Origin: Ophelia neglecta
Taxonomy: Eukaryota
DNA: 64,000 nt
Assembly (NCBI GenBank): GCA_965285935.1
Contig: OZ260661.1
Span: 100,006,001 to 100,070,000 of the forward strand
Direction: 5' to 3'
Below, in pieces: positions 3,821 to 49,400 of the stretch. How positions within the stretch are numbered: position 1 is the first letter of the stretch; the number at the start of each line of letters is the position of its first letter. The notes beneath the pieces were generated by a model. The model searched no databases. It saw nothing but the letters and a program-made list of their open reading frames with translations, and had not been told where the DNA came from. The position numbers and the translations under genes were made by a program.

Positions 3821-3916
3821 TGTGCTTGAACATTTCGGCGAGAGTGGACATCTTTCTCTCTCGCTTTAATACGGCGAATATATACACCAATATATTGTGA
3901 ACTTTGAATCTCGTGA

Positions 3917-3964: not shown

Positions 3965-4083
3965 ACGCTGTTTATTGTCCAGGTCTTGCGCAGATCCAGT
4001 GTGAACGTTGTTATTGAGAGGTGGAGAGGACTTGGATATTCACGGAAGTTGAGTCGAGATAGCAGTAAGCCACAGACGACACC

Positions 4084-4756: not shown

Positions 4757-5307
4757 GTGAGGACATATTTAATTCTCATTTATTTCCATTACAATGATTA
4801 GTATCAATACGGTCTTAAACCCGTCTGCTCTAATTTTAAGCCCTAGCATGTATTTATTTTTCAATATCAGGTTTGTCCCAACGTTTTTATTGTAAACATT
4901 GTGTCACGTTCTTTCCACAATATTTGAAAGCCTCTCCATGATCACAGTATAGGCCAGTACAGGCGTACTAGTTGATAGGCGTGCCTCAGAATAACATAGG
5001 TGTCAATTGCAATTTAAAATTTTGGCAAGTATGGCATCTTTCTGCGAAGCACATTTTGTGCTTAAGACGAGTTTCACATCGCCGGCTTCATGTGGCACAA
5101 CCACGAGTAGGCCTACGTGTTATCGGCTTCGGACTATACAAATTAAAGGAAATTAAACAAAAAACCGGTGCCAAGAAATAGTAACATCAGCTAATTGATA
5201 CTCAGTAATTTTCCAATGGGAATTGGTGGCAAATTCCATTTTCTACCTTTAAATTATTCTTTGAATTTCTGTAGACTAAAACAACTATTCTATTGGTTAT
5301 TTTGTAG
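4757..5307 (+). other. foxA: FoxA intron, 551 nt, GT-AG, phase 1, interrupting the forkhead domain at PGKG|SYW
   Basis: Donor GTGAGG at 4757 and acceptor TTATTTTGTAG ending at 5307. Splicing restores GGA-TCC-TAC-TGG (G-S-Y-W) in frame. Confidence 0.95.
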
Positions 5308-6086
5308 GATCCTACTGGACCCTTCACCCTGACTCGGGCAATATGTTCGAGAACGGCTGCTACTTGCGACGTCAGAAGCGTTTCAAGTGTCCGAAGAAGG
5401 AGACAATTAGACAGGCGCAGAAGACATCCTCACAGACGGTCACGAGTCCCGGGGGCACTCCCCTCGAGTCTGCCGACTTGAACGGCTCTCATGAAGAAGA
5501 CCCAGACAGTGAGGATGAAGGTGACTATAAGCCACAACACCTGGATCCCCAGGTGAGCCAACAACAGCAGCAGCAGCAACAACAACAGCAACAACAGGGT
5601 GGGCCAGACAGCCATCTGCCTCCCCAGCATCAGGGCCATCCGCAGCACCCTCAGCACCATGGGGGTGTCAACTCCGTCGATACTACCTCGCCCCTCAACC
5701 GCCAGCCTAAGGTGGAACCCGGCGATATGCCAGTCTCTACGGCCCCCGGCATGATGCCCAGCCAGGCCCAGGCGCCCATCTCCAGCGAGGGACATATGCC
5801 TCTCCGGCCCATGACCCACGACGGCAATTTGGCTCACATGCACCATCATCCGGCGATGATGATGAACGGGCAACACTTCAACCACCCATTCTCCATCACG
5901 AACATTATGTCTGCAGAATCGAAACAGCAAATGGACTTGAAAATGTACGAGCAAATGCAGGGGGCCTACCCGACATACGGTCAGATCTCACCAGTGTCAC
6001 ACATTCCGAAGGAGGGAACACCAATGCCAGGGGGTGATGGCAACTACTACAAAACATACACCCCCCACTCGACCGCCGGCTTGTGA
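5308..6086 (+). CDS. foxA: FoxA coding exon 2: end of forkhead domain, polyQ, EH1 motif, C-terminus; spliced protein 483 aa
   Basis: Reads [28 protein letters not shown] (FoxA wing 2), then HPFSITNIM (EH1/HNF-3 region II, 5883-5909), and ends [16 protein letters not shown]. Exons of 673+779 nt give 1452 nt = 484 codons. Confidence 0.97.
5559..5597 (+). repeat. Mixed CAA/CAG tract encoding 13 consecutive glutamines in FoxA
   Basis: caa caa cag cag cag cag caa caa caa cag caa caa cag, in frame. Confidence 0.95.
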
Positions 6087-7265
6087 CTAGAGGAACTCTA
6101 GGCTAAACAAGGCGGAGAGCACTCAACTCTGTCACTAACTCTTTTCATCACAGCTCATGGAGGCACGAACTCTTCACAAATTTGCCAGTTCCAGGGTAGA
6201 ATTGCGGTTCTAACCGGGAACTGGTCACCTCGTTCAGAAAGCAAAGAACAGTCTACCTTAATAATCCCAGAACATACGACAGTTCAGGAACTTTCTCGAT
6301 ATGGTCTTTACAATGTGGAGGCTACATCGTATACTCAAACACTTTGTGCTACAAATCGTTTTATGTACGTTAAAATCATCGTCTAGATGAAGTGTATACC
6401 AAAGATAATCTGTGTCAATGGACTCGGCGACTCACATAATGAATCTAGGGTCTATGTACTGCATTTTCACAGATAACAAAGCTGACTCTAAACAGTTCTA
6501 AAGTGATTAGCAAAGAGATTGATAATTATTGAGTATTGTACAATAAGGAACTTTCTACGCAATATTTTGATGTCAGCGCGATGAATCCGTATCTCAGTTT
6601 ATTTTGTTGAAGCCATGCTGAACAACTTCACTTTTGTGCAAAGGCATGTAAGTTGAGTTTCGATATTTGTATTCAAAGCTGCCTTTATTATTTAGGCCCA
6701 ACAATGAACAAGGAACCAGGCTTTTTACTTTAAATTATTAGCTCAAATTATGGTCTATATTTTAATAACAAATGAATAATTTCCTCAAGTGTTAAATTGT
6801 ACAAATTTCTGCATTGCTGCTTTTTATTTGAATATGGATCTGTGTTTAATTATATTGGAGTTTAAGCTGTATATATTTCGGTAGATTGGGAAACACGATG
6901 TAAATGTTTTAGACTCCTTTTCCCAATTCTAAAATTATTATTATTATATATATATATAGAGTTAGATTGATGTGATTTCTATTTCGAGATAGACATATAG
7001 ATCATGAATTCAAATGTTTTTTGCAAGTAATGGTTGCTTCATATATATGTTGAATATATAGAAAATAAACGCTGTTGCGTTGACAATTTATATGGACTCT
7101 TTGGAGGTTTATTTTTGTTCGGTTTAATGACATCCAAATGTGGGAATAAACATTCATATTTTCTCTAAATATGCATATTTTCATCTCAATGTAAATTCAT
7201 CTGTCCAAGTATTCAGTGTTTATATTGTCGATATGGCCATTAAATGAACAAATATCATCAATGAA
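6087..7265 (+). other. Probable FoxA 3' UTR
   Basis: Increasingly AT-rich after the stop; Pumilio-type TGTATATA at 6868; ends at the poly(A) signal candidates. The end is approximate. Confidence 0.55.
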
Positions 7266-7285
7266 AATATTGTTGTTGCTCGCTT
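7064..7285 (+). terminator. Candidate FoxA polyadenylation signals
   Basis: AATAAA at 7064 and 7145; ATTAAA at 7239 followed about 30 nt later by a GU/U-rich tract (TTGTTGTTGCTCGCTTTT). Confidence 0.5.
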
Positions 7286-10200
7286 TTATATATATATTAT
7301 ATAGATGTATGTATATAATGTGTATATCTATATAGGCCTATATGTACATAATGCTACATATACTCGAACAGATTTAAAGTGCGTGTTGAGCTAGGCCAAG
7401 ATTCAGTTACTTAACTTATTACGAGGGCCGATTTCAAATCGAGACGGCAAAAAAGCCTTATTCTTGTGAAACATGCAGACTCCATTTTGTTTGTAATTGT
7501 TTGGTGCAAAATAGAAACGTTAAAGCCGCAGTGTGTTTAATTCGAGCCTGTAGTTTTATCTTAGGCTAAGGCCACACAGAGATATGAAGTACTATCTTAC
7601 CTAGGTATTGGTTGCTAGGCTCGCGTGAGCCGAATTTTGTGGCGTAGATTTGCATGCTAGATAAGGCCGCCATTTCAGCCATAACGGGAGGGGGGGCACG
7701 ACTTAAAGCATTGTGCCTATATTCACGCGCACAAAAAAATATTGGCCGGCTGGACAGAAACCGGCATGTAGCTTCAATTGTATGCATAAAGATATCGGTT
7801 TTATGTTCGGTTCGAGGAAATTCCTGCTGTTTCATATAATTATCCAATTCCTAATAACTACTCTGAAATTTACATAATTCACCGCGAACAGGTATACACA
7901 TCTGCAATAAGTAAGCCATTGTTGTGTATTCCTGCGTCTGCGCGCCGGAGTGACACCTGCCATATTTGGAGCACTTGTCAGCCGAGCTTATCTGGCGGGA
8001 ATTTCAGCTGACAGCAGGTTGAACTTGACATACCCCCGAAACCCCAAATAACCGTATTGCACCATAGCAACTAACATAATTTGACTTCCCGTTTATAGAG
8101 ATATTTTGGGACTAGTGACACAGTAATGTCAAATCATTATCCTTTACTCGTGAATAAATTAGGTAGATTATAAAATTGGCTTGTGCTAAAATACACCACA
8201 CCAATTACAGTACTGCGGCGACCTTAAGGGGTTGCAGTCACGATATAGTCTACCCTAAAATATCAATTTCGAACTAGGGAGCTAATATAATAGAGAAACC
8301 ATGTATAGTTACCCAATCACTCGCTTCATTCTGAAAAGTCGTTCGAGGTAACCAGGAGACACAGGTTGATGTAATACCTTTAGTTATAACCGGCTTAAAG
8401 ATATCGGGAATATAGAGCCATGTTCTAATATAGGTCTTAGAGTTTTATTATACACTTGACCTTACTTAGATTCACTAATTTAAGAGAAAAAAATCTTATC
8501 ATTAGCAAGAGTTGATACTTTGATATATGAAAATGTTGTTGTTTATTGTAGCAATGATTAATCACAAGATATAATTAGATAAACATTAACTGCATGGGAG
8601 GTTTTCTAAATCACTATTTCGCCCATTTAGTCCTGTAGCCCAAGACATGCAGGCCTTTATACCATTCACAGAACAGGCTAGTAAATCATAGCGGCTTAGG
8701 CCGCCATCATAACATTGGACTCGCTATACGATTGTTGTTGTTCCACTTAAAGTATTATTTCACTGGAGTGAAAAATCGTGTAAGGTGATAAGTACTTTTC
8801 ATTCACTCTCGGTATCGCCACAAGCTTATAAAAATATGGAAACATACTGCTCAATATTTTCAACACAAATTTGAAAATACAATGACACGGAACTGTATGA
8901 AAATGCGAAAAACAAATAAATTTCATTCTTGAATAGCAGGTCGAAGAAGAGAATTGGTGTACACCGGGCAACTGGTTAGTAGAAAGAACATCAGATTAGT
9001 GTGTTGACACCTAGGTTGGCACACAAAATAATACACAGATTTTAGCGCAATTATTTTCTAAAACATTGTTTTTTCAGGGTTTAGGTGATTATACTGAGAA
9101 ATGGCTCGCGACAGGAAACAAACGAATACCTTAGAAAAATAATCTCTGATTTTTTCTTGGGGCCGTTTACTTTAGTGTTCTCAGCTCAATTTTCTTTTCT
9201 TCTGTCTGGGGAGGTTAAACATTGGCGCTTGCGGACACAGTAGATACTTACCATAAGTCGATGGGGTGGTGGGCACGGCATTTACCGCACATTGATCACA
9301 GAACAATGTGTTCTTTAATCAACCACTACCATATTAAGAATTGTTGTCATCTACCATTGTTAAGGTCATCAACAATTAAGGATTATGCTTTATAATCCTT
9401 TCACTCGTTTAACATGTTGTTGTAGCCTTTATCCAGCATATATAAGCTTTGATGCCCCCTTTGTGTTTAAGGTGAGAAAGACTACTTAAGGCTTAGTACA
9501 ATTATAATTGATCGCGATGGTTTCGAAACGGTCGTCTGCCGATATGCCCATCCGTTCAAAGTCCATCAGTTGTTTATGTCGTCTTAATTTCTTATTTCAA
9601 ATGTGTCAACAAGCTTGCTGTGAAGTCTGGTTGTAGAATTGTGATCTTATGTACCAGGCCTATTTATTATTAACAAAATTTATATCGAAATTGTTCTACT
9701 TTTCGTACATTGTTACTTTGAAAATAATATTGGTTCCAACAGTTGCTATACGTGCATGTAGGCCTGCGCAAAAAGGTAACAAAAAAAGACATCTGCTTTG
9801 CACCTGAAATTGGATTTGTTTTATTTATAGGCCTACTTCCGAATCGATTTTTTTACTATTTTGCTTAAAACATCAGATATAAATTTAAAAGGCCTTATTT
9901 GTGTACAACTTGTTTATTGATCCTTGGCTAAGACCATGGTTCAAAATGAAATTCAGCAATTGCTATTTCACATAAGTTCATCTTCAATTTTTATTTTTGT
10001 GCAGAAGTGATTTAATACAGGTACAAGCCAGGCTATAATACACCATCCATATAATTTGAGGCCTATATACAAATCGTGCGTTCGTTAACGCCTGTGGCCC
10101 AATAGCAGACGACTTTGGATTGATCTTTTCCCGCCGAGATGGTCCTACACCCACAATGAAGCCGAGGTCGATGGTAGGGTCGCGCAGTTCACTCGATGTA

Positions 10201-13200
10201 CTTGATACCATCGGATAAATGTAAGTGGGATTTTTTTTGCCTAGAGGTAAGGTTCTTCCCCACATCCTGCTCAACTCATAATTCCAATAGATCTAAAGTA
10301 GGCCTATATTGCGTCATGGGCACGGATTTAGAAAATTCGACCAGTGTACAGTCACCTTATATCTGGCCATTCAGCTGAGGTAAGCATTTGATTCTGTCAC
10401 TGGCACAGATTTAAGTTCGATTGATTTTAAACTACCTAGGAGTCAATTTGACATTTTTATTAAGAATAACCTTTAGGCCTACACAGTGCTTTTTGCGCTC
10501 TTTCCTAGGCCTATACCTTTCACTTATTAGGCCTACCTAACATTCTTTTCGTAAAAAAATGATAAGAACAAAATATCATTTCCCATAATAAAATATCTAG
10601 GCCTGTGTTGATGATATAGCCTAGATACAGACAAAACTGAACTGATTTTAAATCCTTTAAAACTGCCATGATCTTAAGAAGATTTACCGTGACAAGTGAA
10701 AAACCAACTTTTCCACCTGAAATGAATAATGCTGCGCTTCTACCTAAATGCCTGGTATTTTTCTTACGAAGATGCGGATTCATTGATTTGGCCTTTTGTG
10801 AGCAGAATGAACACATCACCTTCAATGTGCGGCTCACTAAAGGCAATTGCCAGAATTATTGTGCAAATATTACTGATTTGCATATCTCCATAAGCAGTGT
10901 TTCCGTAGATAATTTTCACAAAAGGTTTACAAACACGGTGATTTACTCGCCATCACCGCTTTCCACATCTCTTAACCTCGCCTCAGTCAAATGCGGGAAT
11001 TTATTATCCATTGGTAAACACAATAAATCATAATAAACTTGCCATTCTTTGGTGCGAGTCTTGGTTTTCTTTCGGCAATGTCTTTAGATTAGGGAGCTTT
11101 TGTCACCCTCTAGAGCGCTTCTCCTTTTTAACATTACTGCCAGTAACTTGATAAAATGAGCTTAGCACTTCTGATGGGGTTAAAGCAAGCCATATTAACG
11201 ATCGGATAACGTTAGATTGGGGAATGGCGGGATTCGGCACAGTCCAAAGTCAAAAATCCTAATCGAAGAGGACGGATGTCGCCTCTCACAAAGGCTTGGT
11301 TTTTCAGAGAGATTGGGTTAAATCTGCATCTAAAATGTGACATGAAAGGGCACTTGGCACGAATGAATTTAACGGAAATTTTTATTTTGTTTAATATTTG
11401 CATTTTTTAAGGTTTGCACGATAAGCGAGTATTCGAAATTGGAATAATGAATATGCCATAATACCGACGGATACATAATAACTCATCTATTTTCTAAGCT
11501 TAACAGCGGGTGCAAATTTATTTTCAGATCGAATACATGGGTAGAAAATGTACGCCTACCAGTTTAATTAAGTTTTAACTGACATACCTTTAAATATCTT
11601 TAGAAGTAAAACCTAATGCCTATTTAGATTTTTAACTAACACAGTGTAGCAATGAAAATATTTTCGCCCTGGAGGTTAAACTTTTAGTAACCCTTTGCCC
11701 TCCAGATTATTGACCTCTTGATCGAGACGCCATTGGGTCATTATGCTACAAGACACGGCCATATTGTCGTCTGATCTGAACATCGCCTGGGGCTGACCGG
11801 CCAGCGTTTGGCTTTCTTCTGCCAATATGGCGGCCGGCTGCAGACGAGATTTATCAGCCTGGGTGTTCTTTGTACGACGAAGCTTCAACAATCGGCCAGG
11901 TGTGCAATTTGATGGCTTTTTATTGAGTTCTCTTTAATTCTAACTCAAGTCCGATGTTTTGTGTTCTTTGCAGGCCTCTATGTTCCGGGACACGCGCGCT
12001 GAAATTTAAACATTCGTTCCTTTGGGCCAGACATTGTCCAGAGGTTACAACAATGAAGAGAATTTTTCCGACTTCAACAACAGTGGTGCCGTTTGCAACG
12101 CTTTCAGGCAAAAGCCGCGTTAAACATTTAGCTTATGGAACTCCAATATAGGCCTGATGGACGTTATTATACCTATAGGCTCTCTCTAGCTCTGCGTTCA
12201 TTTCTTGGTGATCATCAAGGAGATAAAATACTTTATTAATTGTACTGCATGCGCATATGTATAATTGGTTAGGACCCTACATGGCATATAGGCCTTTATA
12301 GTGTTTTTAACCAATAAAACTAATTTTCAAATTAATATAGGCACTTCGGATCAGAGAAAAGCATGTTCTGTATTCAATCATTGCTTTTATTTGGTCTAGA
12401 AGGGAGCATAGCCTGTAGTAGGCTCATAGCATTGACAGGCATAGGCCTACTCCTATAGGTGTAGAGATATATCTACAACAGGAGGTAAACGCAAAAAGGC
12501 ATTTGCGTACAAACTAACTTTTATTTACGCCTCAAAGTGGCTATACAGAATTTTTTTTTTTCCTAAAATTCTTAAAATGATTTATATAGGCCTCTATAGT
12601 GGGTCGCAGCTTTAATTTTTTTTTCTTCCTGGCTAAGCCCCTGAATGAGTGAACACCACGCTATGTGTTGAAGCAACGGGATAACAAAATATATATAGTC
12701 CTACATTCTGTTTTTACAGGGGTCATAGTACTGAATAGATTTGCCATTATGATTCTCGAGCTCTGCGAATAGCACTGGCTTACGTGTAGATTTTGATATA
12801 ATACCTACAAGCAGACGGAATGCAATTCAAGGAATGCACCCTCTTATCGAAAACAATGAATTGGGCCTAACGATTTAACTGAATAATATAAAGATCTATT
12901 GACCTAGGCCTACTCACTTTTTTGTGTTAGCTAATTAACCCTCTTTTTCATAGTTGAAATGTGTTTCAGGCCAAACGGTTTATGAGTCATTTTATCTGAC
13001 TTCGCTGGGAAAGGCAGGATAGATTGGAGAAACTGGGACATTCTACTGAGATACAAACAAGAGGTTTATCTTGGTTATTATCCACCATTTTCTGGCCAAT
13101 TTCATCTTGTGTGATATATGGAAAATGAGCTGTCGCTGGGGAACGAAGCCGGAAACTAGTGGTGATAAAATTCATCAGTTGCTATCTGTGGTCCGCCATG

Positions 13201-15593
13201 AGCGGGGCAGACGACAGGCTGAGTGGGCCTCAAGTATGATGGATTAGGCCCGGCTAATCGTTAATTTTATCTTTCATCGAGAGGACCTCCTAATTTGTCG
13301 TCCAAATCTCTCGGCGTGACATAATGCTGATATAATTACACCTATTTTAATTTCATCTCAGATTCAACATGAATAAAATTGACAACGGCTGGTCATATTT
13401 CACGTTTCAGGTGATTGACTTTTTTGAGGTTTATATTAGACCTATCACTTTTGCTCCTCCTAAAGCCGCAGGTATACTTGTATCAGGATAGTAGAGTAGC
13501 AATAATGCGAAAAAAATCCCCCCTATACTATATAATGCTTATCTTTACATATTATATACTATATAGGGGTTTTTTTGGCGATATTTTTAACTCAGTTCAT
13601 AATACAAGTACCTGTCAGTATAAGCTGCTAAACCAGACTTCATTCCTTGTTCAGATTTAAACCGGAACATATTAATGACGTTATTTTAACGTCTTATCCC
13701 CTTAATGAACCGGATCTGCACTTTTACCCAAACAAGACGTATACTCGCATTTTTTTCGTATAGCTTACATTTATCACCTATAAAGGCACAGAGGTTTGAA
13801 TATCATTCTGTCATGATCAGTGAAAAATACCAGGTCCGGCATGGCTTACATGTAATGCGTATATAGACCTAGACAATAGTTATTGAACTTGTTATAAATA
13901 ATCCTGCAGATAACGACAGCGGGTGACCTAGAGTCGAGGTAGCATTTTATCGCCCACTCTGATAGAGGCCAAAGCAGTTAGGCATATGTCATATATCTTA
14001 TTACACTAAAGAGCCGATATATGTCCCCTTAGTCTTATTGCCCGTGATATTGACAAACTTCTCAATACTGATACGACAGGGGAACCAATTGGCAAATTTA
14101 CACGTGTTGAAGCCCCGAAACAAAAACATTGCGTGAACTATGTGTATACTTTTGATTATCTAGTGTTTGCATACGACCAGTGTCAACTATGTTTATTGCG
14201 ACTACTCGAAATAATATGTATTTTATCAACAGGTAAACAAAATGGAAATGGTCCAACTATATAGTGATAAATTGTATTGTATACACACAGACCTCACAAT
14301 ACTTACAAGGCCCGCCTCTAAGTGGCCTTCTTATCCTGAGCTCCAATTGGTGCACAAACTTTCTCCCCTTTGAAGCATCTGATTGTTTTCTAAGATTCTT
14401 CATCTAATCTGCTGAATAGCTATCTAAATATTGCCTGCCAGATCAAACATTCCATCATTAAGTCGACAGGGGTGCTGTTGACACCTTACTCCACATTTCT
14501 GTGCTACGGTAGGAATATATATTTATTACCAACTTACTCATTGTATCCGGAAATGCGGTGAAAAAAAACATCTTCAGATTTAATGTTCGTGCTTTCAGTG
14601 GTTAACTGCCAAACCTGTTGCACATTGAAGGGACTAGAAATAAGAAGCAAGGTTAGGAACAAGTAATCATCCCGATGAGTTTACAGGTAAAGCGGTCAAG
14701 TACGTGGACGAAGTATAAACCAGTCGGAAAAATTCTATTGACTTAGATCTATATACTAAATAAAATTGAAGAGCATTTGCCGCAGACTATAAAAGGTTGG
14801 TCGTTACATACAGTTCATTGTTCACAATATACATAGGCCTACACCCAACAGGAGGAATAATATCTAAACTTGAAACGCTTCTATGTTTCAAGTGTATCTA
14901 TTTAAAAGAATGACATATGTGATATTCATGCACTGAAGCCCTCTTGAATATTTTAGAATTTATTTATGACACTATAAGAGCATCAGACCTTATGGTTTCC
15001 TAGCCTGTACTGTGCCACCGTGATTTTAGTAGTTTTATGTTGTACCTGGTATATTTTAGAGGCTTAAGCTGGACGCCTTCTACCATTCAACAACAATACC
15101 CTGGCGGAAATAAACATAAGAATTTGTCATCGGTCTTGTGAAAGAGTCCGAAGTGATCGACGTAGCTCCCGTGTAGGCCTACCTGCGATCATGTCATGTG
15201 CGCAGAGATATTGCAACCACGACCCGGGCTTTATCGATTCGTCTTTTACGGTCCATTTTGCATCGCCAATCCTAAATGTGTCAGAAATGTAGAGGTCCTC
15301 TGCAACAGCTGTCCTTGTATTCAAGCTGAATAAACATCACTGGGAAATAGAAGCAACCCTTGACTCTATGACGCAAGTTATTTTCTTGAGCTGTTGGTTT
15401 GATTAAAATATAGGTGGACACGTCCCATCTTAAGTAGAAAATTTAAATTCAGGTGAGTATTAGACGCGATGCTTCCGGGGAAAAACAATGTTGGAGAGGA
15501 ACTTTAATTTTGAAAGCTTTCACCTTAAAAGATCATCTTTCCGGAAAAGTAGGATGTTGTGTAGAGACCTAATGTTGAAGATTCAGACCACGC

Positions 15594-15616
15594 GGGGGGG
15601 GGGGGGGGGGGGGGGG
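15594..15616 (+). repeat. G23 homopolymer
   Basis: 23 consecutive G. Confidence 0.9.
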
Positions 15617-18600
15617 CTTAAACGGCCACTTAAGGCAACTTCAATTAGTCTGATAACCCAGGAAGGTCAATAGGCCATATATCACGATGATGTAATAAAA
15701 TCAATGGTTTATCGCTATGACGTCATACAGCCTAGGCATATAGGATTTTCCCGATCCCCCAGGGCGCAATTTAGGCTATTATTATTATGCCTAGCTGTGT
15801 AAAATGTAATATCATGTGTAACCTTTATTTAAGTTCTTGCCGGTTGAGTTTATTATTATAGAAGCAAATATTGCTCTTTCCTCTGCGCGGGGGTCATCAA
15901 GAGCTTAAGCTATCTCTGTGTGTTTGATAAACCTATACCGGTTATTAAGGCCAGACAGGTGCACGTATAAAGCACATTCTGTAACAAAACGAAACGAACA
16001 TCCCCGCAAGCATATCTAGTCTCGTGTGAGCTTTCATTGTCAAACACATTCTGTAAAACACAAATCGAAGGAAGTATTGTGCACAAATATAATTATGCAA
16101 ATGGCGCATTTCGGTCGTGCCTTCCGACCCATTTCTGACAGCATTTAAGGCATTTTATGAGCATAACTGTGCTCTCGGAGGGTGAATGACCCCGGCTACC
16201 CAGTGAGGATCATGACCTTTGATTTTCCATTGGTTTCACCTGTGTCGGTCGCGTGGAATCTCCAGCCGAGATAATATTGACCGCCCGCCCAGCTAATTCA
16301 CAACTGTAAATTAATGAACTGGGCCCGACACTAAAGAGATCTCGCTCTGGCCATCAAGTGATAAATTGAACGCCAGGTTTAATTCAATTTAACCACCAAT
16401 CATCTAAATAGCTTTCGATGTTCACCACGAGCCCTCGACAACTGTCTGAACACAAGAAATTAGGCTTCAAGCGTTCATGATATAAATGGTCGATTGTTGG
16501 GGTCCAGACGCACTACTGCTCTTTTTGAAAAGAACACTTATTGCTCAAATATCGTGACCACTTCTAGCAGTTGGGTTTTCATTTGACCACAACCGAATCC
16601 CTTTAATCACAGGTCACAATTGGATCAACCAAGCTTTATTTTAATGAAATATCTGGCTTTCACCCCAGTCATTTACTAATTTGTCCCGATTTGTATGGGC
16701 AAGGAGTAGATGCTGCAATGAGTACTATCAGTCAGCAAACATCGCCATTTACAGGCGGCGAAATCCTATAAGCCGATGTGCAAAGTTTTCGGCTGGTTTT
16801 ATGCCCGGATCAATACACTGAGTGCACGAGTAAATACACATCGTTTGGCGTGTTTTATTTTCCAATGGTCGACAAAGTCAACACTGAGAAATTCAAATAA
16901 AAATCTCATATATTACTGGCCGAGAGCGGGGAACGTTTACTTAAGTTATCAGACTATCGATGCACTCCATTTCCAGACGCTGCTGGTTGGTTTCGCCACC
17001 TTTCCCTGGTCTAAGGTGGTTTATACGTTGCCAAAGTCCTATATTATAGTGAATTTGGGTGTGGAAGTGTGTTAGTCGTCCGACAAGGTGACCAATTTTG
17101 GACCTAATTGCCAGAAAAGATCAAAAATGGCCGAGAAAGTGGTGCGTGCGCAGACAAAGACGAGAAAGACGGGAATCCAAAGCACCAAGGTGTCATGGCG
17201 GCACTCGAGGTACGCTGTTTTCATTTGTTCCTTTCCAATTTCCTTGCTTCTGAAATTTTATTATTCTACTGGGGCTTTAACTAGAATAGGCCGAGATCCC
17301 ATTTAGTGTCATTGCCAAGAGAAAAACTAAATTACCTGCACTTAAGCGCAATTTGCCCTCTTTCACCAAGTAATATATTATAACATTGGCTCCCATAGTG
17401 CGACAAAACAGGCGGGCGCAAGGACATACAGAATAATTGTGTTTCAGGACATTGTCTGGCACCCTTCATCCAATAATGGCAAGGGGAAATTGATGAATTT
17501 TGGGAGATTTTCCTGTCGGGTTCGGCAGTTTTCTTCCAACTTAGCTAAAATGAAATGGGCTTTCAGAACCGAGCCAATCTCGCTGCTATTCTGAGGGGAG
17601 CGAGGGGATTGATGGGAACACTTCATTAATTGATGGAAACTCAATTTATCTGCAATGTAAATACCCTGGCTCATGTCGTGGAGGCCCCTTTCCATTACAA
17701 CTCTAATCAGGCGTATTGGGGAGAGATGCCGAAGCAAAGTACTTCCATTCTCCTTCTCCTCCTCTGATCCCATTTAGGCTGGGAATACTCATTTACTCAC
17801 TTCCCCTGGGAATTCTTCGCCGCAGAAACTGTTCAGCGGAAAAGAGAAACAAAGCCCGCAATATTCTCCCGATCACTGCTCTCGCCAACTACCCCGAAGA
17901 CCAAACAGACGACAGTTGGCTAATAACGGCGGGAAATAGCCGCAGGGATATTACAGTCATCCAAATGGAAGGACGTATTGCTCCGCTACTCGAAAATGTT
18001 GACGACCCGACCGAGTCAACCGTGTATTGCACAGAGGAGAGCAATATTCTTTTATTGAAAACGTCTTACACACTAGAACGAGGGACGATAAGGTGGTATG
18101 GAAAATAATCAGATTAAAGGAGAGTATTTAGGTCGCGCGAAGACGGGGAAGGTTAGCGGCAGACTTTGGACGCTGAGTCGGTGATTTTTTTTACCACCGA
18201 CAATTCCTTGGCCCGATGACATTGCAACAAATTTAAGCGCCTAAACGCCAATGGTATCTTTTATTTTGCGTCAAAACACTCATTTTGATCCCCTATATCA
18301 TTACCCAACAAGTTAAGGATAACCAGAAGGCTGAACTCCGATCATTTATATGCTAGGCCTATTGGGCCTAGGCCTATAAGTTTATATATTGAATGCTTTA
18401 CTTGTTATACGGGCGAAATTTTTCCTTGGATATCAATGGGTCTATATGCACTGTTGCTCAACCCTTTATTTGTTGAAGCTATAGTTAGGCCTATAGTGTA
18501 TAGAGACTATCAGGGCCTGCTATTATACTCATGTTAAAAAAGAAAATCCAAAAACCGTCAGCGCACCTATAATGTATACATATTATGCGTACATGTAGGC

Positions 18601-35720: not shown

Positions 35721-35748
35721 TACAAGGTTACAAGGTTACAAGGCTACA
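35721..35748 (+). repeat. 8-bp tandem repeat (TACAAGGT) x3.5
   Basis: tacaaggt tacaaggt tacaaggc taca. Confidence 0.85.
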
Positions 35749-38438: not shown

Positions 38439-38830
38439 TGGCCTGTAGCCGGGGTCACGTCGCGTTAGTCGGACGACCCCCCAGTCCCCCCCCCCCCACA
38501 CAAACACACACATATACCCCAGACCACTTCCCACCCAAAAATGACCCCCCCCCCCCCCCCTTCACCATCCTATGGCCAAAACGTGAAACTGCTGTTTAGG
38601 CTAAATAAAGTACAAAAAAATTTTACTGAAAAAGGATCTCTTCACTTCACTTCATTCAATTATATGAGGACGAGTATGTCACATCCTGACCCCCCCCCCC
38701 TCCTCCCCCTCCCCTTTCTGGGTTTATCTAGGTTTTGTTTAAAAACATCCACAAAAAAATCTTAAAAAAGACCACCACCACCCCCAACCCACACCCCCAC
38801 CCGACCTCAGAAGCCCAGGCTACGTGCTTG
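38439..38830. mobile_element. Probable degenerate non-autonomous DNA transposon (MITE) of about 390 bp with internal poly-C tracts
   Basis: Imperfect terminal inverted repeats GCCTGTAGCCGGG (left) and CCCAGGCTACGTGC (right; reverse complement GCACGTAGCCTGGG), enclosing several C-runs. No ORF and no clear TSD. Confidence 0.5.
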
Positions 38831-41800
38831 GGCTGAAGAAAACTGCAGTTTGAGGAACTGAGACCATTTGATTTGGGCCCAGGAGAATAGCTTCCTCTTT
38901 CAGTGATTCATTCGCACAGCTATATGTTTGACATTAGAGTCGTGTGGCTAGTGGATGTGTCTCTGGAATTTCGGGGATGCTAAGGACATGTTATCACATC
39001 TAGTGTATAATTCTAGATGTTAGAGAAAAACGTCAAAGCAGACCTTTAAAGGGGTAATTTATATCTTGTTACAGGGATCGGATGATTTTACCGAGCGCCG
39101 GCCGGTCCTGTTTTCCAGAGCCCGAGCTGATTGACTATTCGGTCACTTGGCTCCAGACTTAAGGGTTGGCACCCTCGTCTTCATCAGCATCGGAGAAAAG
39201 AACAATAAACCTCGCGGGCAGTGGTTGGCCTAATCATAACGATGTGCTTGGTTTCACTTGGGGCAATAAAGAAATACTCTGTACACCGAAACTGATCTTG
39301 GTGGTCAGACTTAATCCTCCATAGCGATGCATGGGACTCGACCTGGGCTTACCCTCTGGACACTAATAAGACTTTTAATCTTAAAGCAATCAGGTTTACC
39401 CCGCCAAGTGTCACCATTGGACGTGAGGATGTGTCTGCTTACGATGTCAGGGCCTCGTCAGGCACGGACACGTCCCCTCGCTTCCTCTTGTCAGAGAACC
39501 ACTGGCCATACACAGGGCTCGGCTTGCCTCCCAATTATGTCCGAGTCGCCAGGAGAAAGGCTTTATTGTGTATTGTCTGTTGTATAGAGTCGACGCTGAT
39601 TAGATGTGGAGGGCCTTGTAAACACGAGGTGGACATTTTACATGGGTTTTGGCAATGGCTATAGGAACTACAAATCTAATGACCAGCGACGGGACTGAAT
39701 ACCCATGTTTGCGTGGCGGTGGTCTATACACAGACGACAGAATAGGCTTTTACAAGTAAATGTTGACAGTGGGTCCCCGGTTGTAAACCCACCTAATGTC
39801 GGATCAGCAGGGTTCTCCAAACACCATTGCTCCGTGTTTGACAAAGATTTGTCAAATTACTCCGACACAAAATAACTGCTTCATAAAGATGTGTACAGGT
39901 AGTTTAATAATCTGGACGCGGACAAGAAGAGCGCATATTGGCCACCCAAATTTACACTTCTATTTCGATATGGTATATATTCTAATTCTATATACAGGCT
40001 AGCGTATCAATTAATTGACTAGCTCTGCCTACGGAATTACATCTTTTGGCCAGTAAGATTACACGATTAGAAATCGGGGGATATAATGCAGGGTATATTG
40101 AGATGTGTAGTAGAAATGACTGACTTGAAAATACAAGTCGCGTCTTTAATTATATCAAAGGCATTAATTTTCCACACGATATAAAACATGGTGGAGGTTT
40201 TTGATATCATATTACCAGATTAATGTATAGGCCCCTTATGCTTGATTCGATAAGAGCATATGATTAAATTAATTTCCTTTTTCCTACACGACTAAGTGCA
40301 TAGGTGAAGTTAAAAAGATGGCCCTGGACATGCATGGCGTGGTGAGTGTTGTGGGCACACGTGGGAACGCTTGGGTGTTCCATTTGAAAGTGTTCACCTG
40401 GACGAATAATTGTAGTATTATAACAGAAAATTCCGTCGCCGCCTTATGTCAAAAGACCAATTGTATCTTCAATTAACCACGGCAATTTCTGCATTAAAAA
40501 CGATTTCTATCATAGCAATCCAGTCGATCTACCGTGAAACCCAATCAGGAAAAGGGATGAGAAACGGGCAGGTGGCAACTTCAGAGAGACCATTTGCATG
40601 CTCAAGAAAGTTTGATAGCATTGTCCGGGTAAATATCAGGCACTCTTTTTCGGTTTTTCATTCAAACGTTGTCGATTTGGTTATCCACCTCATTAGTTTT
40701 ATTCGGTATTAAATCAAAATCTCTCCCTGAAGCATGTCATTTTAGTTCGCCGCCTAGTTGACGTTTGCTTCATATTGAATTATTTTATTAACGATTAAAT
40801 CTTGTCTGTGAGTTTCTTATGCCTAGAATGATGTGGTAGACATAAAGCCAGAACCCTGATAATCGCTTGCAGACGACATTCCAGTAAGGAACCGTCAACT
40901 AGTCACGACATCTGGCGGTTAAAACTTTGATCAGATCGACTCCAAATGAAAACGATTTTGTTTCAGACTAATCATACAGGAATAAACCAACAGTAAAGCA
41001 TATCCGAGCCATGTCGTAAATGTTTTCTTAAACATTAAAATTTAAAAAGACAAAGAATGTAAGGAACAAAACAGTTCCAGCGTGTAGTTATGAGTTGCGA
41101 GATGAGATTAAAAAGTTCCTTCTTCTCAATTAACACTTACAATGATAGGCCGATAAGCTACTTTTGCCTCCGTCACGTTTTTACAAATCCAGCCTATGTA
41201 ACTGTAACATTAATTTGAGAAACTCATTTGTAATCATATTGTTCCGGCTATAAAGACAGCTCCAGACAGTCTGTTTAGGGACGTGCTGGGACCCCCGGCG
41301 ATGGAACAAACTTTTTATGCTCGCCTCTGTTTGTAGTTCGTCGTCTGCCATGAGTGATGCACATGGAATTAATGACTCCACTGTTTCCCTAGAACTATCG
41401 ATCATCGCTCACTCTTTGTGCCATTGTTTGTTTGTTTTCGTTTTTACTTTCACTCACTATTAAATAATTACTTGATGCTATGGATGATCAATTCCGGGAC
41501 TGACTAAACCGTGGGTTGTAGCTGCTACAGTCCGAGATAAAGTTGACTCTCTACAACAGAATACCACGAAAATATGGAGTTGGACAATTTAAGAACACAA
41601 AGAGCTGCGCTTTGTAGCAAAATGAAATATCTCTTTGATTTAAAATTGTTTATAATGTTTTCCACTGGTGGCGCTAGGAACAACCAGACATGCTCTTTAC
41701 TTAACGCTGGATCACGAAAAGAGATTTCTTAAGTATATATATATATAGTATGGTCGATTCAAACAGACTCAACCAATTAGACCAATAAGACTTAGGAATA

Positions 41801-43285
41801 ATGAATGGTGGATTTGTCACGAGCTTTGTTTCATTAAAATGTAATAGCATCACCGTTAATATCACGTTGGGATAGATTAATACCTTGCATGCTTGCCTTT
41901 TCCCAAAATCGATGCCCATTTGCTCTCTCTGCCTGCTGATAGACCACAGAGAGGCGTTATGAGTTACATAATTGTTTATTTTTCATTAGGCACAATTTGG
42001 CAAATGTGCCACCGTGTCGATTCGTCTTTGATAGAACTGTAGCTGTTGCATAATTTGTCACTTAGGCGAATTCATTGTTGAATTTAGTGGAGGTGTGATC
42101 GAAATTCTACGTGTGAGCATGTCCACCTTTATTAGACATTGATGGGAACAATAAATGCGTTGTGAAATTAAGTCTTATTGACGAAATGGTTTCGCAGGGA
42201 ATGCATGTGAAATGTCTTTCTCTCTATATATTATTCAGATATGTATTTATTGAATATGTGTTTCTTGACCAACCGTGTCAATTACACGTCCTTTTTAATA
42301 AGCAAAGTGCCCCCCTTTCGTGAAGTATATTCTTTAATAGTGAAGTTAAGCATAATTAAACTCTTTCATATAAAAATCGCAAATCATGCGTGTGGTATGA
42401 TTATAAATTTTAGGATCTTTGCGCCTTGCTTCGAAATAAATGCTTGATTTTTTACACTTTTATTGCTTCAAATTTATTGAAGGAAAAAACCTAATTATGC
42501 CTAATAATAATAATTCTTGTACAGTTCTATAATAGAAATAATCCCGAAATTCATGCAAGTATGTTAGTGAACCAAGCAGACAATTGAGGGAAGACCGAAT
42601 ATTTTTCTAATTGTTTCTCGTGAAAGGGAAATTGATAATTGTTAACTTTCCCAACATGATGTGTTTTATTAACATTGCGTAATCTATTGACCAAGTATTT
42701 CAAGTTGACAATTAAACTGACAACTTATATAATGATAAGGCATTAATTTTGCGTTATGTTCAGATATGCCAACAACTGTTAATGCATGATTCATCCAACC
42801 CAAGCACTGCCAAACTTTTGCTTGGCACCCGAGACTCCTTTAGTTGCGTTTTTTCGCCAGCAAACATAGTGAGCTTGGTCAAAGTTGTAGACGTATTCTC
42901 CATTAAACATTATATATGCACAAATGTATATAACTATCTATTAAAGGTCATTTAACCCTAGATAACAGAGAAGCTGTGATAATAATTACTTTATTCATCC
43001 TCTATAGAGATCGAGTCATTTTACAAAATAGGAACCAAACATATACTTATAACAGTGTAGCGTTTTTCTATAACCTGATAAATTGGTACACAAGCCATTA
43101 TACTGCAATTGACGCTATATACAATGATGCGCAGTAATATGCGCCTTAAAAAAGAACCGGACCTCGGGATCGAAAAATAGTCCAATAGTTATCAATAATA
43201 AACTTCATTACTTTAAGGAAAACTCAAACAAAAAATTCATTTACACAAATTTAATGAATTAAAGGCCTGTATTGATAATAAAATG

Positions 43286-43430
43286 TATTGTTTATATTAT
43301 TTCAATATGTCTTTTTATTATTATTATCATTATTTTTATTATTTATGATTATCATTATTATTAGTAATATTATTATTACTATTATAATGTTTTTTCTTAT
43401 ATTACTTTTTTCTTATTTGATATTACATAC
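43286..43430 (+). repeat. Degenerate (TTA)n low-complexity tract
   Basis: ttattattattatcattatttttattatttatgattatcattattattagtaatattattattact... Confidence 0.85.
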
Positions 43431-46400
43431 TTTTCTGACATCATCGGCAGATAGGCATTTTCTTAATCACTGTGTAATGCCATGATTATTAACAAATTTT
43501 CTGTACTAAATACATTGTTGAGAAGTTGAATTTGACAGATGCCGACTGCTTTATCCCCAACCCACACCCACTCATCCCCTCCTTTAAGGCGACCATAAGG
43601 GCCAAATAGAGCTAAATCGATCAGAACTGTGTTTTTTTATATCAAAAATACAAGTATTTAGGCCCTACTGGGTGTTTCTGATAAAACCATATCAACAGTT
43701 CTTTTTAATACCTGGGAAATAGAATCATATCATTTGTTGTTTCTTTAAAGTTCTCCTAATTATGTTTAATTGTTACAAAAAAACCTGATCGGCGTGTACT
43801 GTTATAATAATTGATTGGTACCATGAACTTTTATATAGGACTAGTGCACGTATATCCATGGCCAATGACATTTTTATCCTGCAAAACATAGATCCATATA
43901 CATTTTGCAAGCCTAGTTTGATTTTGTTCACGAACATGTGTATAACTTCTCCAATGCGCTAATATGTCAGAGACAGCTTCGAATATAAGTCCAATGTTGA
44001 TTTTGTCACCTCTGTGATTAAAATATCATAAATTAGAAAGAGGGTGATCGATTTGACATTTTATCTTTAGCTAATTGGTCAAGTATAAGATTACGACTAA
44101 ATATTTATAAATCGTGACAGCGGTATAATGACTTGGCTCCAATTCTAAACCACTTATTACCTATGTAGTGACATGTATAAATTCTAAAATTGTCAGGTTT
44201 CCTAAAGTGACTGGGGATGGATAGGTTGGGTCAACACAATTAGAAGCGTTCAAAAGAAACCTTAAACGGTCAACACGGAAACAAAAGGTCACAAGAGTGT
44301 ATCGGTAAATGTTATTCTCAGAAACGTCAACATCATTGGTGAAACATAACTACTTGGTGAGAGTGAATTGTGTAAAATCTGGAATGGATTTTCTCCCCAC
44401 TATGTGATTCCATTAACAAAGGCTTAGTACGGGTCAGTAATTATTGGTCGTAAGTATTTTATCCAATTCGGGTGTCTTATAATATTGCCCAAGGTCCTTA
44501 TATTAATTTAAATGTGTAAATTATAATAATTACGAGGATTACAGAGCAATAGAATCTTCGGTTTTATTTGGAGATGTAGGAGAATTGGCACTGCAGAATA
44601 GATATATAAATTTTAACCACTTAACTTTAATAAAATGAATTCAATCAAAAACATATTAATGTCCAAGTGGGATCATCGAATTTTCTCATTGAATATAAAA
44701 GGTCTACTGAAAGATTCGCCTTGTAACTTAGTTTTTCTGGTGAAATCAGCGTATTGATTCGTTTTTCTTCGAATAAAACAAATGTTTACGTTTTGCTACA
44801 AGGAAGCTCGATCGTTTCACATTAGTGTCCACAGTTAGAGCACATAAACCGAATGGATGGCCAAAGTATGGAATCGCTGGCTGAGTCAATGGTCTTTTTT
44901 AATGCAGGCCTACTGTAGGCATATCTAACGGTTACTAAAAAATACTATATCGAGGAAGTTCAACGTACCTATTACCCCTGTGAGCTCCCATCAAAAGAAA
45001 TGGCCCTCAACACTAAATTGACAATGTTCGCCAAAGCTTTATCATCGTGCTGTAGCGGAATAGGACTATACGGCTGGAAACTGCCCGACTTTTTTCTGTA
45101 CAAACTTTAATAGGATTGTATACAATTTCCGTGCTCTACCGCCAACCAGATGTAAAGTGTTGTCTCGTCGAAGTAGAAAGTAAATTAACTTAGAAGCACG
45201 CGTACAAGTTTGACTTACTATCATAAACACACTGAGTACGGTGTTCTCAAGATCGGGGCTACCATCATATAGGCCTATAAACCTATGTATTCTCTGCGTT
45301 TTATAACAAATATTTTCAGTGTTCACATTCTTCACTGCTTGGACAAATACATTTTGTCTGTTCAGTAGTTTTGAGACAAACAAATTCTCCTACTTTAACC
45401 TATATACTCAGTCGCAACTATACAATCGACACCGTGTTTAGATAAATTTGAAGGCAGCAGTTTATATATTTGGTCACCCAATCAAGGACGCCGCAGATAA
45501 ATATACAATTCATATTATTGTGTGTATGTAACACAATCTAACGTTATAGGCCTATACCGGGCTAATGTGCGTTCAACCTATAAAGTTGAGCTATTATCAC
45601 AAGGAAGTCGTTTGAACGAGTAAATATTGTGAAAAAAAATGTCAATGGTATACTGTGAGTATGATACCCAGGCATTTTTTGTATATGAAGATCTACATCA
45701 TTGTTAATTGTTGTCAATTATTAAGGAATATCTAGCGAAAAAAATATCCCGGTCATGGGTGTAGCCCAGATGAAACTTATGGGTCTAGCAGGCCCGTTGT
45801 GAATTATTTGTGATTAAAATTGAAATAAAGAAAAATATTTATCTTGAAAGCGTTTGCAATCGTTATTGAAAAGACCTGCATTTTGGTTATGAAAAATAAA
45901 GCCAGAAGCAATTTGTCTTCGATTTCGTCTGATTTTTAGGCCATTGATAATCGAGAGGCCAGATGTTGTTAGCGAAATTCAATTTGCAATCTGTTCTCCT
46001 CGCCACAAGGAGATAAAATTTCGACAGCTTTTATAATGGGGGCGAATACCCCTCACGAGCGAGCAGGTTTGCATCTCATTTCTGTCATAACGAAGCGACA
46101 ACACCGCAAAATAAATATTTGAATATCTTCAGCCATGCTCATCAACTGATCTAATAAATGTAAGGTTGTGCAGCGTTATTAAAATCACCAATTAAAACCT
46201 GCTCGAGGCTATCCCAGCCGCTACCCTCTGGGAAATAATACCTCGTTTGCAGCAGCTTGGAAGAGTTGTAATTTCGTCAGATAAATCTCCCTCGATCATG
46301 ATAAATCATTGCTTAATTGTTTTTTTTTTTACGCTGGTGCCTGTTTTGTCCGTGCTACCCATGGCAAGGAGCGCCCGTAGCCAGCTAAAGTTAATTTAAA

Positions 46401-49400
46401 CAAATTAGCGCAAATGCTTATTTTATCCCTTTAATAGGCCTACATCAAGCTGGGAATCTTATTCAGATATATCTGAAATAAAATACGAACTTTTAAAATT
46501 CCATATGTTTATTTGAGTATGAAATTGGGTAAATTAAGAAAAAATTAAATAGGATTTTAGGGAGTTTTCCCAAAACAATCTAGATGATTTTAAGCTACCT
46601 AGGAAAAAATGCGTCAAATTTTATTTAAAGCTCATTGGTTTATTGCCAATAGTAAGGCATATGCAGATTATTATTCATATCCTTCCTCACTGATTTGAAA
46701 AATGGGTTCCCCTAAATGTTGTCACTGTTACAAAATCGATGGGTAAATGGAAGCATCAATGTTCTTAATTATACTGAAACTACGTGGCAAAGGAAATATG
46801 CAAAGCAATGGCACTAGGCCCGACTGCAACGACTCGAGAGCTTTTTGGCCTGTCGGCATGTTCCAACTCGACCAACTTTAGGTTTGTCAAGAATCAACAA
46901 GAGATGTTGACCAGGATTGGTTTCCAGGCAGAAAAAGTGTAACTTGGGACTCTCCAACTCTAATCCTGGCGGTGAAATCCCCAAATCCCTTGGAGCTGAG
47001 GATTTAAGCATTCCAATGCGGTCGAGATTCGACCCTTAGGTTTGGAGATGGGATAATTCCGACTCGGACGGCGAGTTTCTTAGCACTGGCCTGCTAGTCT
47101 GGTAAACACTCTACGCTCGTGAGCTAACACTCAACAATCGGTCAAGAAAAGTGATCAGGAATGGGTGAAACGTTTGTTCAGCCAAACCCAAGCCCAGTCT
47201 TATCCCTGAGTAATCATTGAGACTAAATATTGATAGTCTTCAGGGTGACAGGCCAACATGGCGAAAGAAGAGAAATCGTCTCAATATTTGACAACATTTG
47301 ACAAAATAAACTTAGATGGTGATTTATTGAGGGCAAATAAAGGTATACGGAGAGAAAACTGTGGTTTTGGTCATGCACGACAGAAGAATTACCCTAGATT
47401 TAATCTCGCAGATTATTTGATGAGCATACAATTGAAGTATATAACATACAAGATGGTGTAGATTAGATCTAGAAATATTCTGCTAGTTAAGATAAGTAGT
47501 AGATTGGTCTCTAGTTCTCCTGAATCGAATAGGCAATATGCTCTTGTATCGTTTAAAGCAATTGCATTGACCAAGCCTCCGGTAGAAAAAAGTGTCCTAG
47601 GCTTTCTGCCTGAACACAGTGGTACATGTAGTGCACTTTTAGTGGAAAAGGGACCTTGATTATATCTATTTGAATTAAATATAATTAATCTTCTCGTTTA
47701 TGTAAAACTCGAAAAGGATATGCCTTCATCTGTCATTATCAGACCCATATTTTAGGCCTGACTTTTCATACTTTCAGTGGCGTTACGATCCATAGCTCGG
47801 TGATAGGCTCTGTAGGACAGCCAATGGAACCACATACAAATATAAACTACATGAACTAACGAAAGCAAGGCCATGGATCATTTTAAATTCCCGTTGGTTA
47901 GGCAATATATGAAATTACAGCCCTCTTCACTAACACCTAACAGGGGCTGTAAAAATGGTTTCAGTATAATTCAGATATTGTCCATTTTGACAATAAACCG
48001 CAGTGACTAAGCACTTTCCCGTTACCGTGTTTTGAACTGGTGGGGTCTAAATTGTACAGGAAGGGTGAGAGAGTATGATCTCGTTGCGGTCTCGCCTGCC
48101 CGGACACGTCTTTCCTCCATGAAACCGGATCCCTTATCCTCAAACCATTATCTCTGTACTCGAGTAGCTTTCCGTTTGCGCAAATAAAACTCAATTAAAC
48201 CCTTTGAGTCCATTTTAAACCACAAATTTGCGCCGGACAATACATAAAAAGCTCCATGACTGCACCCAAAACAAGCAAAGGTGTGAGGAGAGCCTGGCTT
48301 CTTCATTTCATTCGGACATGCAGCTTTTTCCTCTACTTTGTACCACACGCACAATGGTCAAGAGCTAGTTGGTCGGCCCACCTTCACCACAAACAAACGG
48401 TTTAGGTTCTGCTCAATTCATTGTATTGACCACTGTCTCAAACCGGGGTAATATTTTTCTGTGAAATACCAATGCAAATACAATGAAATAAGAGACACTT
48501 TCACTGAATGGCAGACGACACAATTATTGCCTTACCACACACTAGGCTTATATGACAAAAAAAAGCATACGACCCCCCACGTTAATGGTTATTAATGGAT
48601 ATGACGGTGGTGATAGGGAGGCGCTGGGCATTTGGGCTTGACACGAACCACCCTCCTCTCCAGCATGGTATCCAAGAAGGGGGGAGGGGTGGGGGGGGGG
48701 GGCTACTGTCACACTCAAGCCCTGTCTCACTGGAGATATAAAACGGTTAAAAAGAGTACATTCGCTCACCCGGAAGGCCTATAAGGTGGCCACAATAGGT
48801 CAAAAGGTACACACACCACCCTCTTTCTCCAGTTAGTCGGGGCCACGTGGGATGTATACAATATACTCACTCCATTCTCTCTCCCCGGGTTAAAGCGAGT
48901 CATGATGTACGCACATCATCCTCTCTCCTGGGCAGGACTAATACGACTCGGGTGTCACAAGGTATACAGGCTAGGCCTATCTATAGCCGAAATATCATAA
49001 GCTGTCTGTAATTTCTGCTTTTGTCTTAAAATGCCTGCAAGCCGCATACGATGGTATTTAAGTTATTTGACACAATGTGACGGTACCTCACTTTCGGTTT
49101 TATTTCAAACCTCACTTGATCAAGTAAAACGAGAATTTTATGGTTTTCATCATACCATTGTAGCAGTTTTGAGATAACATCATTTTAGATGCGGAGTTCC
49201 CAGCAAACAGTGCTTCATACTTCATTCACAGATCCTATTAATAATATAGGGTAGTGATTATATATAGGCGCATTGCTTGCCAAACTCAGTAACTTTTGCT
49301 GAACAATCAAATCAAAACTGGAAAATAAATTGAAAGTTTGCTATTCAGTGGGCTTGATGGTGGTCTGGGAATTTCGAGACATAATAAGTGAAATTACCCC

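Follow-up and report, generated by a model that had tools for sequence, protein, structure and literature searches.

What makes one short palindrome recur dozens of times around a single developmental gene? The question is raised by a 64,000-nt stretch of the Ophelia neglecta genome (contig OZ260661.1, positions 100,006,001 to 100,070,000 of the forward strand; hereafter the window), which carries the gene FoxA and, within 5108-48979, 37 exact copies of the word TAGGCCTA. We propose, with a probability of about three in four, that this word is the excision footprint left at TA sites by pogo transposons with GG...CC ends, and that it is dense at FoxA through preferential landing of these elements in domains that retain CpG and are likely unmethylated.

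Density of the word in the window and the genome

A first-pass annotation, made from the sequence alone, had reported at least 36 exact copies where fewer than one would be expected in 44 kb, and none in 1-5 kb or 49-64 kb. An exact search of the whole window agrees: it finds 37 copies, including every position named at that stage, and zero in 1-5107 and 48980-64000, while 100 dinucleotide shuffles of the window give a mean of 0.75 and a maximum of 4, none reaching 37. At the mean density of the genome, the absence of copies from 49-64 kb is unremarkable (P 0.25). The excess also goes beyond lower-order k-mer bias: an order-3 Markov background on both strands predicts 5.2 copies against 74 observed, and in 864 kb of sampled DNA from the same genome the exact word stands at 13 times expectation, with its one-mismatch neighbours at 0.6-2.2 times.

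The word had also been described as domain-restricted, which is too strong. The 762-Mb genome contains 69,501 copies (0.91 per 10 kb) against 3,592 of the reversed word, an imperfect control because it holds a CpG. The FoxA domain contains 8.4 per 10 kb, about nine times the genome mean (Poisson P 3e-23), and the 12.1 kb that precede the window bring eight further copies, so that the rich domain surrounds FoxA. The CpG-retaining 120 kb further upstream hold 18 copies. TAGGCCTA is therefore a genome-wide word, regionally biased and extreme at FoxA. Repetition of units that include the word, in minisatellites and in a 1.66-kb tandem repeat, inflates the genome-wide count (C1:0.64-0.66 Mb, 2.73 Mb and 4.605 Mb; L053; L196:6814-7393; C and L numbers are our handles for contigs and loci).

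Within the domain, clustering was correctly noted (gaps of at most 200 bp number 14 of 36, against 5.9 simulated; P 0.0002), as was the lack of a single repeat family. The flanks are unrelated and match no other sampled loci, and no convincing inverted repeat is present, so that one repeat family or one element with terminal inverted repeats (TIRs) was rejected as the source. The placement of copies in AT-rich linkers between CpG-rich blocks did not survive comparison with random TA sites (GC 0.363 vs 0.375, p 0.08; CpG count 8.0 vs 8.8, p 0.24). Of the one-off variants reported, the seven-letter forms are barely raised (11 vs 6.1 in the FoxA domain; 40 vs 39 in an unbiased 400-kb grid, for which expectations come from an order-2 Markov model). 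One-substitution variants do stand above background, the surplus being about 44 for 37 exact copies in the domain and 39 for 37 in the grid, which is compatible with a long-running input of scars.

The word arises by insertion at TA

The clearest evidence on origin comes from paralogous copies in which one carries TA and the other TAGGCCTA. There are four independent sites of this kind: a single event carried by one element family (L060:4922, the same as L156:2355), and L194:7509, L195:9409 and L198:9626, the last two in pairs whose flanks show no other difference, or one of a single base. Across the paralog comparison GGCCTA ties for the commonest among 79 six-base indel contexts, with six rows; two classes tied with it resemble low-complexity repeats by appearance, and CATGTA and CCGGTA likewise occur as indels. 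In two high-copy repeats searched genome-wide, 14 copies have 3-8 extra bases at a TATA, five of them as six-base inserts (three CATGTA, one GGCCTA and one tandem duplication). The uninserted form predominates in these repeats (9-11/101 loci), which fixes the polarity as insertion.

The word also nests in itself. The nested form TAGGCCTAGGCCTA occurs 642 times in the genome, where about 9 are expected from base composition and the reversed control gives 0. In the window, two abutting copies at 19326..19341 look as if inserted at both TA of a TATA, and at 18590..18603 TACATGTA and TAGGCCTA have one TA in common, as two nested scar types. Two copies 10 bp apart at 25422..25439, a stretch that is single-copy in the assembly, face a run X2 contig that is without 4 + 8 bases at 25424 and 25430 and reads as a plain TA run, probably an empty allele; this comparison covers the contigs of one sample, with 40 out of 170 rows visible for substitutions and 12 out of 45 for indels. 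All this makes TAGGCCTA the product of six bases inserted at a TA. Contig C3 was tried as a haplotig for a further allele comparison and rejected, only the element itself aligning.

Five-base GCCTA/GGCTA indels at TA were seen in paralogs at L189:124, L133:2332 and L193:9326. They are a possible minor footprint form, though the seven-letter words that they would give have no excess in the grid.

Candidate donor elements and the words expected from their ends

Footprints of the Tc1/mariner/pogo class are textbook knowledge. In order to find donors, we searched the genome for the DDE_1 transposase domain (150 of 445 candidates scored). The pogo-type elements that could be bounded have four end types, CA, CC, GA and GG, all with TA on both sides; the best-scoring loci with located ends are all CA-ended. 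Eight GG-ended elements were bounded (L147, L155, L160, L197, L243, L246, L253 and L256). Their TIRs begin GGGGA and are 25-29 bp long, and their bounds read TA/GGGG...CCCC/TA. DDE_1 and HTH_psq exceed the Pfam cut-off in all three that were scanned (L147, L155, L160), and L147 and L160 have open transposase frames with both domains, of 728 and 671 residues. To judge from these sequence features (DDE_1, HTH_psq, short TIRs and TA duplication), the GG-ended donors fit the pogo superfamily; HTH_psq is listed for Fot/Fot-like elements in the accessible part of one report (PMC7386202). The 3' neighbouring base is a pyrimidine at 8/8 GG-element sites and 32/37 scars, against 53% of background TA sites, in small samples.

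Tc1 is reported to leave the footprint taCATGta (PMC3520976), and Tc1/mariner elements to leave footprints of non-homologous end joining (NHEJ) and to hop locally (PMC2874221). If two bases of each end stay behind, as in Tc1, every end type predicts its own word: TAGGCCTA for GG, TACATGTA for CA, TACCGGTA for CC and TAGATCTA for GA. The first three exceed expectation in the 400-kb grid, with 42 observed vs 5.1 expected, 59 vs 12.2 and 10 vs 2.5, respectively. Among all 16 palindromes of the form TA-NN-NN-TA the only other clear excess is that of TATATATA, a microsatellite.

Two things are shown: an insertion turns TA into TAGGCCTA, and the genome carries pogo elements of the form described, some with long open transposase frames. 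The elements would duplicate TA on insertion, excision would leave two bases per end, and end-joining would give TA-GG-CC-TA; by analogy with Tc1 we hold this step to be highly probable. The transposon footprint, one of three origins offered by the first-pass annotation, is the one supported, by filled and empty pairs, by nested copies and by GG-ended donors with TA duplications.

Two other candidates for donor were discarded. A 410-bp element with GG-type ends has flanks common to its copies, and so rides in a larger repeat and offers no independent sites. A 500-bp KolobokP-like element with GGTTGCAG ends makes variable 4-bp duplications (TGTA, TTGA, CTTA, TATA) and cannot yield a constant TA-GG-CC-TA. 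The latter has 1,561 end matches and occurs as solo copies and in arrays of 1.4-kb period (L062:1180-1681; L048; C1:74.67-74.75 Mb). Within the GG-ended element L160, an F-box/LRR-like (leucine-rich repeat) gene fragment lies on the minus strand at 4651-5383.

The word is biased towards DNA that retains CpG

We compared the scar types in 200 unbiased 2-kb grid bins, repeated contexts removed, of which 55 have a CpG observed/expected ratio (o/e) below 0.45. These low-CpG bins contain 1 of 37 TAGGCCTA (P 1e-4) and 24 of 57 TACATGTA, a contrast with a Fisher probability of 9e-6. The two words stand at 37:3 in the FoxA domain and at 42:59 in the grid (P 1e-8). Since TAGGCCTA has no CpG, deamination cannot directly erase it. 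The GG-type word avoids CpG-depleted DNA and the CA-type word does not. The flanks of the elements differ too, with a mean CpG o/e of 0.65 for GG-ended (n=8) and 0.36 for CC-ended copies (n=13; p 0.01). Twenty homeobox loci average 2.2 TAGGCCTA per 10 kb, more than twice the 0.95 of CpG-rich grid loci (p 0.011). Ten same-strand homeodomains at C1:60.52-61.08 Mb are probably the Hox cluster, where eight sampled 10-kb pieces have only 9 copies between them, far below FoxA.

Against a 2-Mb sample, repeats cover 0% of the window at 4-54 kb and 12% of the grid. The lack of any sampled repeat in the domain fits a purging of full-length inserts with tolerance of six-base scars. The pogo element Passer has been found experimentally to favour promoter and enhancer chromatin (PMC9976928, in its accessible part). 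Given this precedent and the opposite distributions of TAGGCCTA and TACATGTA, target choice that differs by family is the simplest reading, and we consider family-specific targeting of chromatin likely. Taken together, choice of target in the germline according to family and removal of full-length inserts from the FoxA domain, its tiny scars being tolerated, would probably account for the pattern. The mutational sink of unmethylated chromatin, another of the earlier suggestions, keeps its CpG-retaining bias and loses its mechanism, as the word is made by insertion and not by point mutation.

Weighing the footprint reading against its alternatives

Several observations speak against footprints with chromatin preference. 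On the side of the footprint, excision is unobserved, and no site was found as empty, element and scar alike; the window yielded no GG-ended element, the closest known being a non-autonomous copy of 2.7 kb, 154 kb after the window ends. Donors are few, with 355 matches to one GG-end pattern, many within larger repeats or satellites, against roughly 60,000 excess words. TAGATCTA shows no excess in the grid (6 vs 5.3) though GA-ended families exist, with 6 bounded copies. A fifth paralog pair has TT, not TA, as its empty site, and two of the six GGCCTA rows are the same event. One form dominates here, unlike the heterogeneous footprints of 0-4 bp reported for Passer in the accessible text (PMC9976928).

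On the side of the regional bias, methylation is inferred from CpG o/e only, CpG decay can create TACATGTA and so inflate the contrast between scars, and 4 of the 37 grid TAGGCCTA sites lie within one CC-ended element. At the 10-kb scale the correlation of TAGGCCTA with CpG across the grid is not significant (rho 0.20, p 0.22), nor is the difference in flank CpG o/e between GG- and CA-ended elements (0.65 vs 0.46, n=10 for CA with short flanks, p 0.15), and two of the eight GG-ended elements stand in CpG-poor DNA. The 5' regions of 18 Rab/Ras genes, taken as housekeeping genes and without mapped transcription starts, are only mildly enriched, their 72 kb holding 11 copies (1.5 per 10 kb; P 0.07 vs the genome mean), and none occurs in 1-5107, which includes the FoxA promoter, or in a CpG island at +67-69 kb. 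These last counts weigh against simple targeting of promoters, including those marked by trimethylated histone H3 lysine 4 (H3K4me3). Broad developmental domains are richer in scars than the Rab/Ras 5' regions, the FoxA promoter or that island; promoter sparsity could be explained by selection at compact promoters or by a preference for bivalent domains.

The footprints might be real and their excess at FoxA due to retention or chance, through old repeat-poor DNA, selection in expressed gene bodies, or a burst of local hopping. The domain is indeed repeat-poor, its copies are clustered at short range, local hopping is known in the Tc1/mariner group (PMC2874221, accessible part), and density across homeobox loci ranges widely, from 0 to 8 per 10 kb. 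If old DNA simply kept its scars, TACATGTA should be raised here as well; it has 3 copies in these 44 kb and peaks in CpG-poor DNA, so that general retention fails. Repeat cover, moreover, has no predictive value for scar count (rho 0.13, p 0.37, n=49). A recent local burst accords less well than long-running input with the excess of one-substitution variants, and other developmental loci are rich too, homeobox domains among them reaching a density similar to that at FoxA, such as one at C2:87.75 Mb with 26 copies in 40 kb (a biased choice, its flanks having been taken beside a rich locus). We regard this account as improbable, though the strongest of the rivals. A repair or polymerase process independent of transposons, for example a templated or enzyme-specific micro-insertion of GGCCTA at TA steps in open chromatin, would explain why one exact form dominates and why donors are rare relative to scars, and it would make less awkward the double loss at 25424-25437 on one contig, which otherwise calls for two independent rare events. 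It gives no account of the matching words, in excess and as indels, for three of the four resident pogo end types, or of the agreement between the flank preference of scars and that of element sites. We know of no such process, and think it a poor candidate.

Least credible of all, to our judgement, is a selected binding site, ZFX/ZNF711-like or for some other dimer, that marks unmethylated developmental domains, as the first-pass annotation had also envisaged. The word is palindromic, is denser at homeobox loci and has AGGCCT in common with the motif that ZFX binds at CpG-island promoters (PMC5848610, accessible part). Yet the 3' G of that motif, AGGCCTAG, is found in only 2 of 37 copies (plus strand), the FoxA promoter region is without copies, near-matches are barely enriched genome-wide, the word is intolerant of mismatches, and it originates as a six-base insertion inside unrelated repeats and nests in itself. 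Some scars may have been co-opted later as binding sites. The footprint of GG-ended pogo elements landing in CpG-retaining domains remains, in our view, the best account of the word.

A putative histone-reader finger in GG-ended elements

A candidate module for such targeting is a C-terminal PHD finger encoded in two GG-ended families, L246/L253 (with L244) and L155, one cysteine being replaced in the latter. The related loci L247 and L248, whose ends were not located, also end in a PHD finger. None was found in L147 or L160, and none was detected by motif scan (frames of at least 100 and later at least 60 residues) and Pfam (nine frames) in the CA-, CC- and GA-ended elements scanned. The Pfam match is full-length and below the cut-off (E 5e-4 to 5e-3). 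The best of five structural models has a pLDDT (predicted local distance difference test) of 78.6, the other four being below 48, and its leading Foldseek rows belong without exception to PHD fingers (probability 0.97-1.0, E >0.01); on this model the finger appears to have the Cys4-His-Cys3 PHD fold. Its best solved relatives are ARID5 PHD chains, in which the H3K4me3 cage is reported to be formed by two tryptophans nine residues apart (PMC13361950, accessible part). Two invariant tryptophans with the same spacing align with this pair, and both are kept in 43 of the 44 PHD-bearing proteins among 85 longer homologues from other animals, known without their element ends. The finger is therefore a putative H3K4me3 reader by its cage residues. 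In L246 the splice sites, read by eye, are in phase for joining the DDE, linker and PHD exons, which may thus form one predicted spliced protein. The C-terminal domain of the L160 transposase was considered as Tudor-like and dropped, its model being poor (pLDDT 46) and its best fold match uninformative (Z 5.7).

A viral-tegument-like (VTD) deubiquitinase domain precedes the finger at L155:4790-5530 (C9:38.72 Mb) and L246:5160-5900 (C2:104.26 Mb). It matches PDB 8ADD over the whole domain (E 2e-6) and keeps the QC and FDSH motifs. That structure is the VTD of a zebrafish Helitron, and the transposon carriers named in the accessible part of its report are Helitrons, not pogo (PMC9741609). No longer proteins with the VTD-PHD frame were found in a weak search. 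An OTU domain is listed for 10 of the 85 longer homologues.

A finger that reads methylated H3K4 might direct the targeting. Our tentative proposal, doubtful as it stands, is that GG-ended pogo transposases home through it to H3K4-methylated germline developmental domains with unmethylated CpG, the approximately 60,000 scars being a fossil map of that chromatin.

Organization of the window around FoxA

The gene at 4084-6086 is FoxA by its Pfam Forkhead and Forkhead_N domains, and the best named relatives of its protein are molluscan FoxA proteins. Coding exon 1 (4084..4756, plus strand), whose end was read from a GT donor in the sequence, holds Forkhead_N and most of Forkhead, and exon 2 follows at 5308..6086 on the same strand. 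No TAGGCCTA among the 37 copies falls in the coding sequence; the first (5108) lies within the intron and the other 36 in a repeat-poor, CpG-retaining stretch 3' of the gene (6087..52000; o/e ~0.8). Four copies cluster at 10299..10535 (10299, 10474, 10506 and 10528), and the densest cluster has 12 in 3 kb (18354..21390). From 54001 to 64000 the DNA is CpG-depleted (o/e 0.3-0.4), presumably a methylated gene body, and has no copies; this depletion extends to about +120 kb, with two copies in the 60 kb from +54 kb.

At 20020-21431 a 12-bp inverted pair starting TAGGCCCAC, 1.4 kb apart, encloses five scars; it is probably due to chance (an estimated ~0.2 expected) and possibly an old miniature inverted-repeat transposable element. 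Many contigs end loosely at 18995-19164 and 20453-20471, which points to short repeat fragments, unseen in the sampled sequence. An 8-kb, strongly strand-biased low-complexity array of 62% GC (L013-L014), 14-23 kb upstream of the window, adjoins the upstream edge of the scar-rich domain. Another word, GCAGACGA, is strongly enriched, with 16 sites at 1067-55409 of the window in unrelated flanks; it occurs 41 times vs 2.7 expected at the 20 homeobox loci (L021-L040) and not at all in 10 CpG-poor grid loci. Of the two words it is the stronger candidate for a genuine binding motif.

Significance and comparison with known systems

If the footprint reading is right, a highly enriched 'motif' near developmental genes is a by-product of transposition, and a trap for regulatory motif discovery in invertebrates. 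Footprints would record past insertions with far less selective filtering than surviving elements do, and counts of two scar types with opposite distributions would test directly whether natural DNA transposons choose their targets by chromatin. Were the more doubtful guidance by the PHD finger also true, the TAGGCCTA map would complement the TACATGTA map of families without a reader, and the scars would keep supplying developmental enhancers with small insertions. For chromatin-directed integration, a transposase that brings its own histone-reader finger would be a candidate. The class of footprint is known; what merits further work is the regional bias and the reader domain. Among titles and abstract openings, with subscription journals and supplements outside the search, nothing was found that describes TAGGCCTA as a genome-wide scar or pogo targeting guided by a PHD finger.

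Other systems resemble parts of this one. ZFX/ZNF711 (PMC5848610) has in common with it the AGGCCT core and an association with CpG-rich DNA; TAGGCCTA is without the terminal G of that motif, has TA on both sides, is not promoter-proximal and is made by insertion. Linker 6-mers of hypomethylated domains in medaka and zebrafish, such as GCTAAC (PMC5607494), are likewise short, enriched and unexplained words with no known binder. They are other words, they show a periodicity of ~200 bp, and no transposon origin is proposed for them in the accessible part of that report. KolobokP (PMC9587614, accessible part) recalls the 500-bp element found here, with its GG...CC ends and LTDR-like arrays, which differs by its variable 4-bp duplication from the constant TA.

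Closest are the transposons themselves. Tc1 of Caenorhabditis elegans and the NHEJ footprints of Tc1/mariner elements (PMC3520976, PMC2874221) show the same TA duplication around two terminal bases per end, and the Tc1 form TACATGTA is itself in about 5-fold excess in this genome. Here, in contrast, the core is GG-CC and the donors are pogo-type with HTH_psq, and where the accessible part of those reports calls footprints rare, tens of thousands stand with strong regional bias. Passer (PMC9976928), to the extent that its report is accessible, is a pogo transposon with a TA target, footprints of 0-4 bp and a preference for promoters and enhancers. The donors of Ophelia differ from it in their HTH_psq domain, their GGGG ends and the PHD finger and VTD-like domain of two families, and their scars are biased towards broad developmental domains more than towards housekeeping 5' ends.

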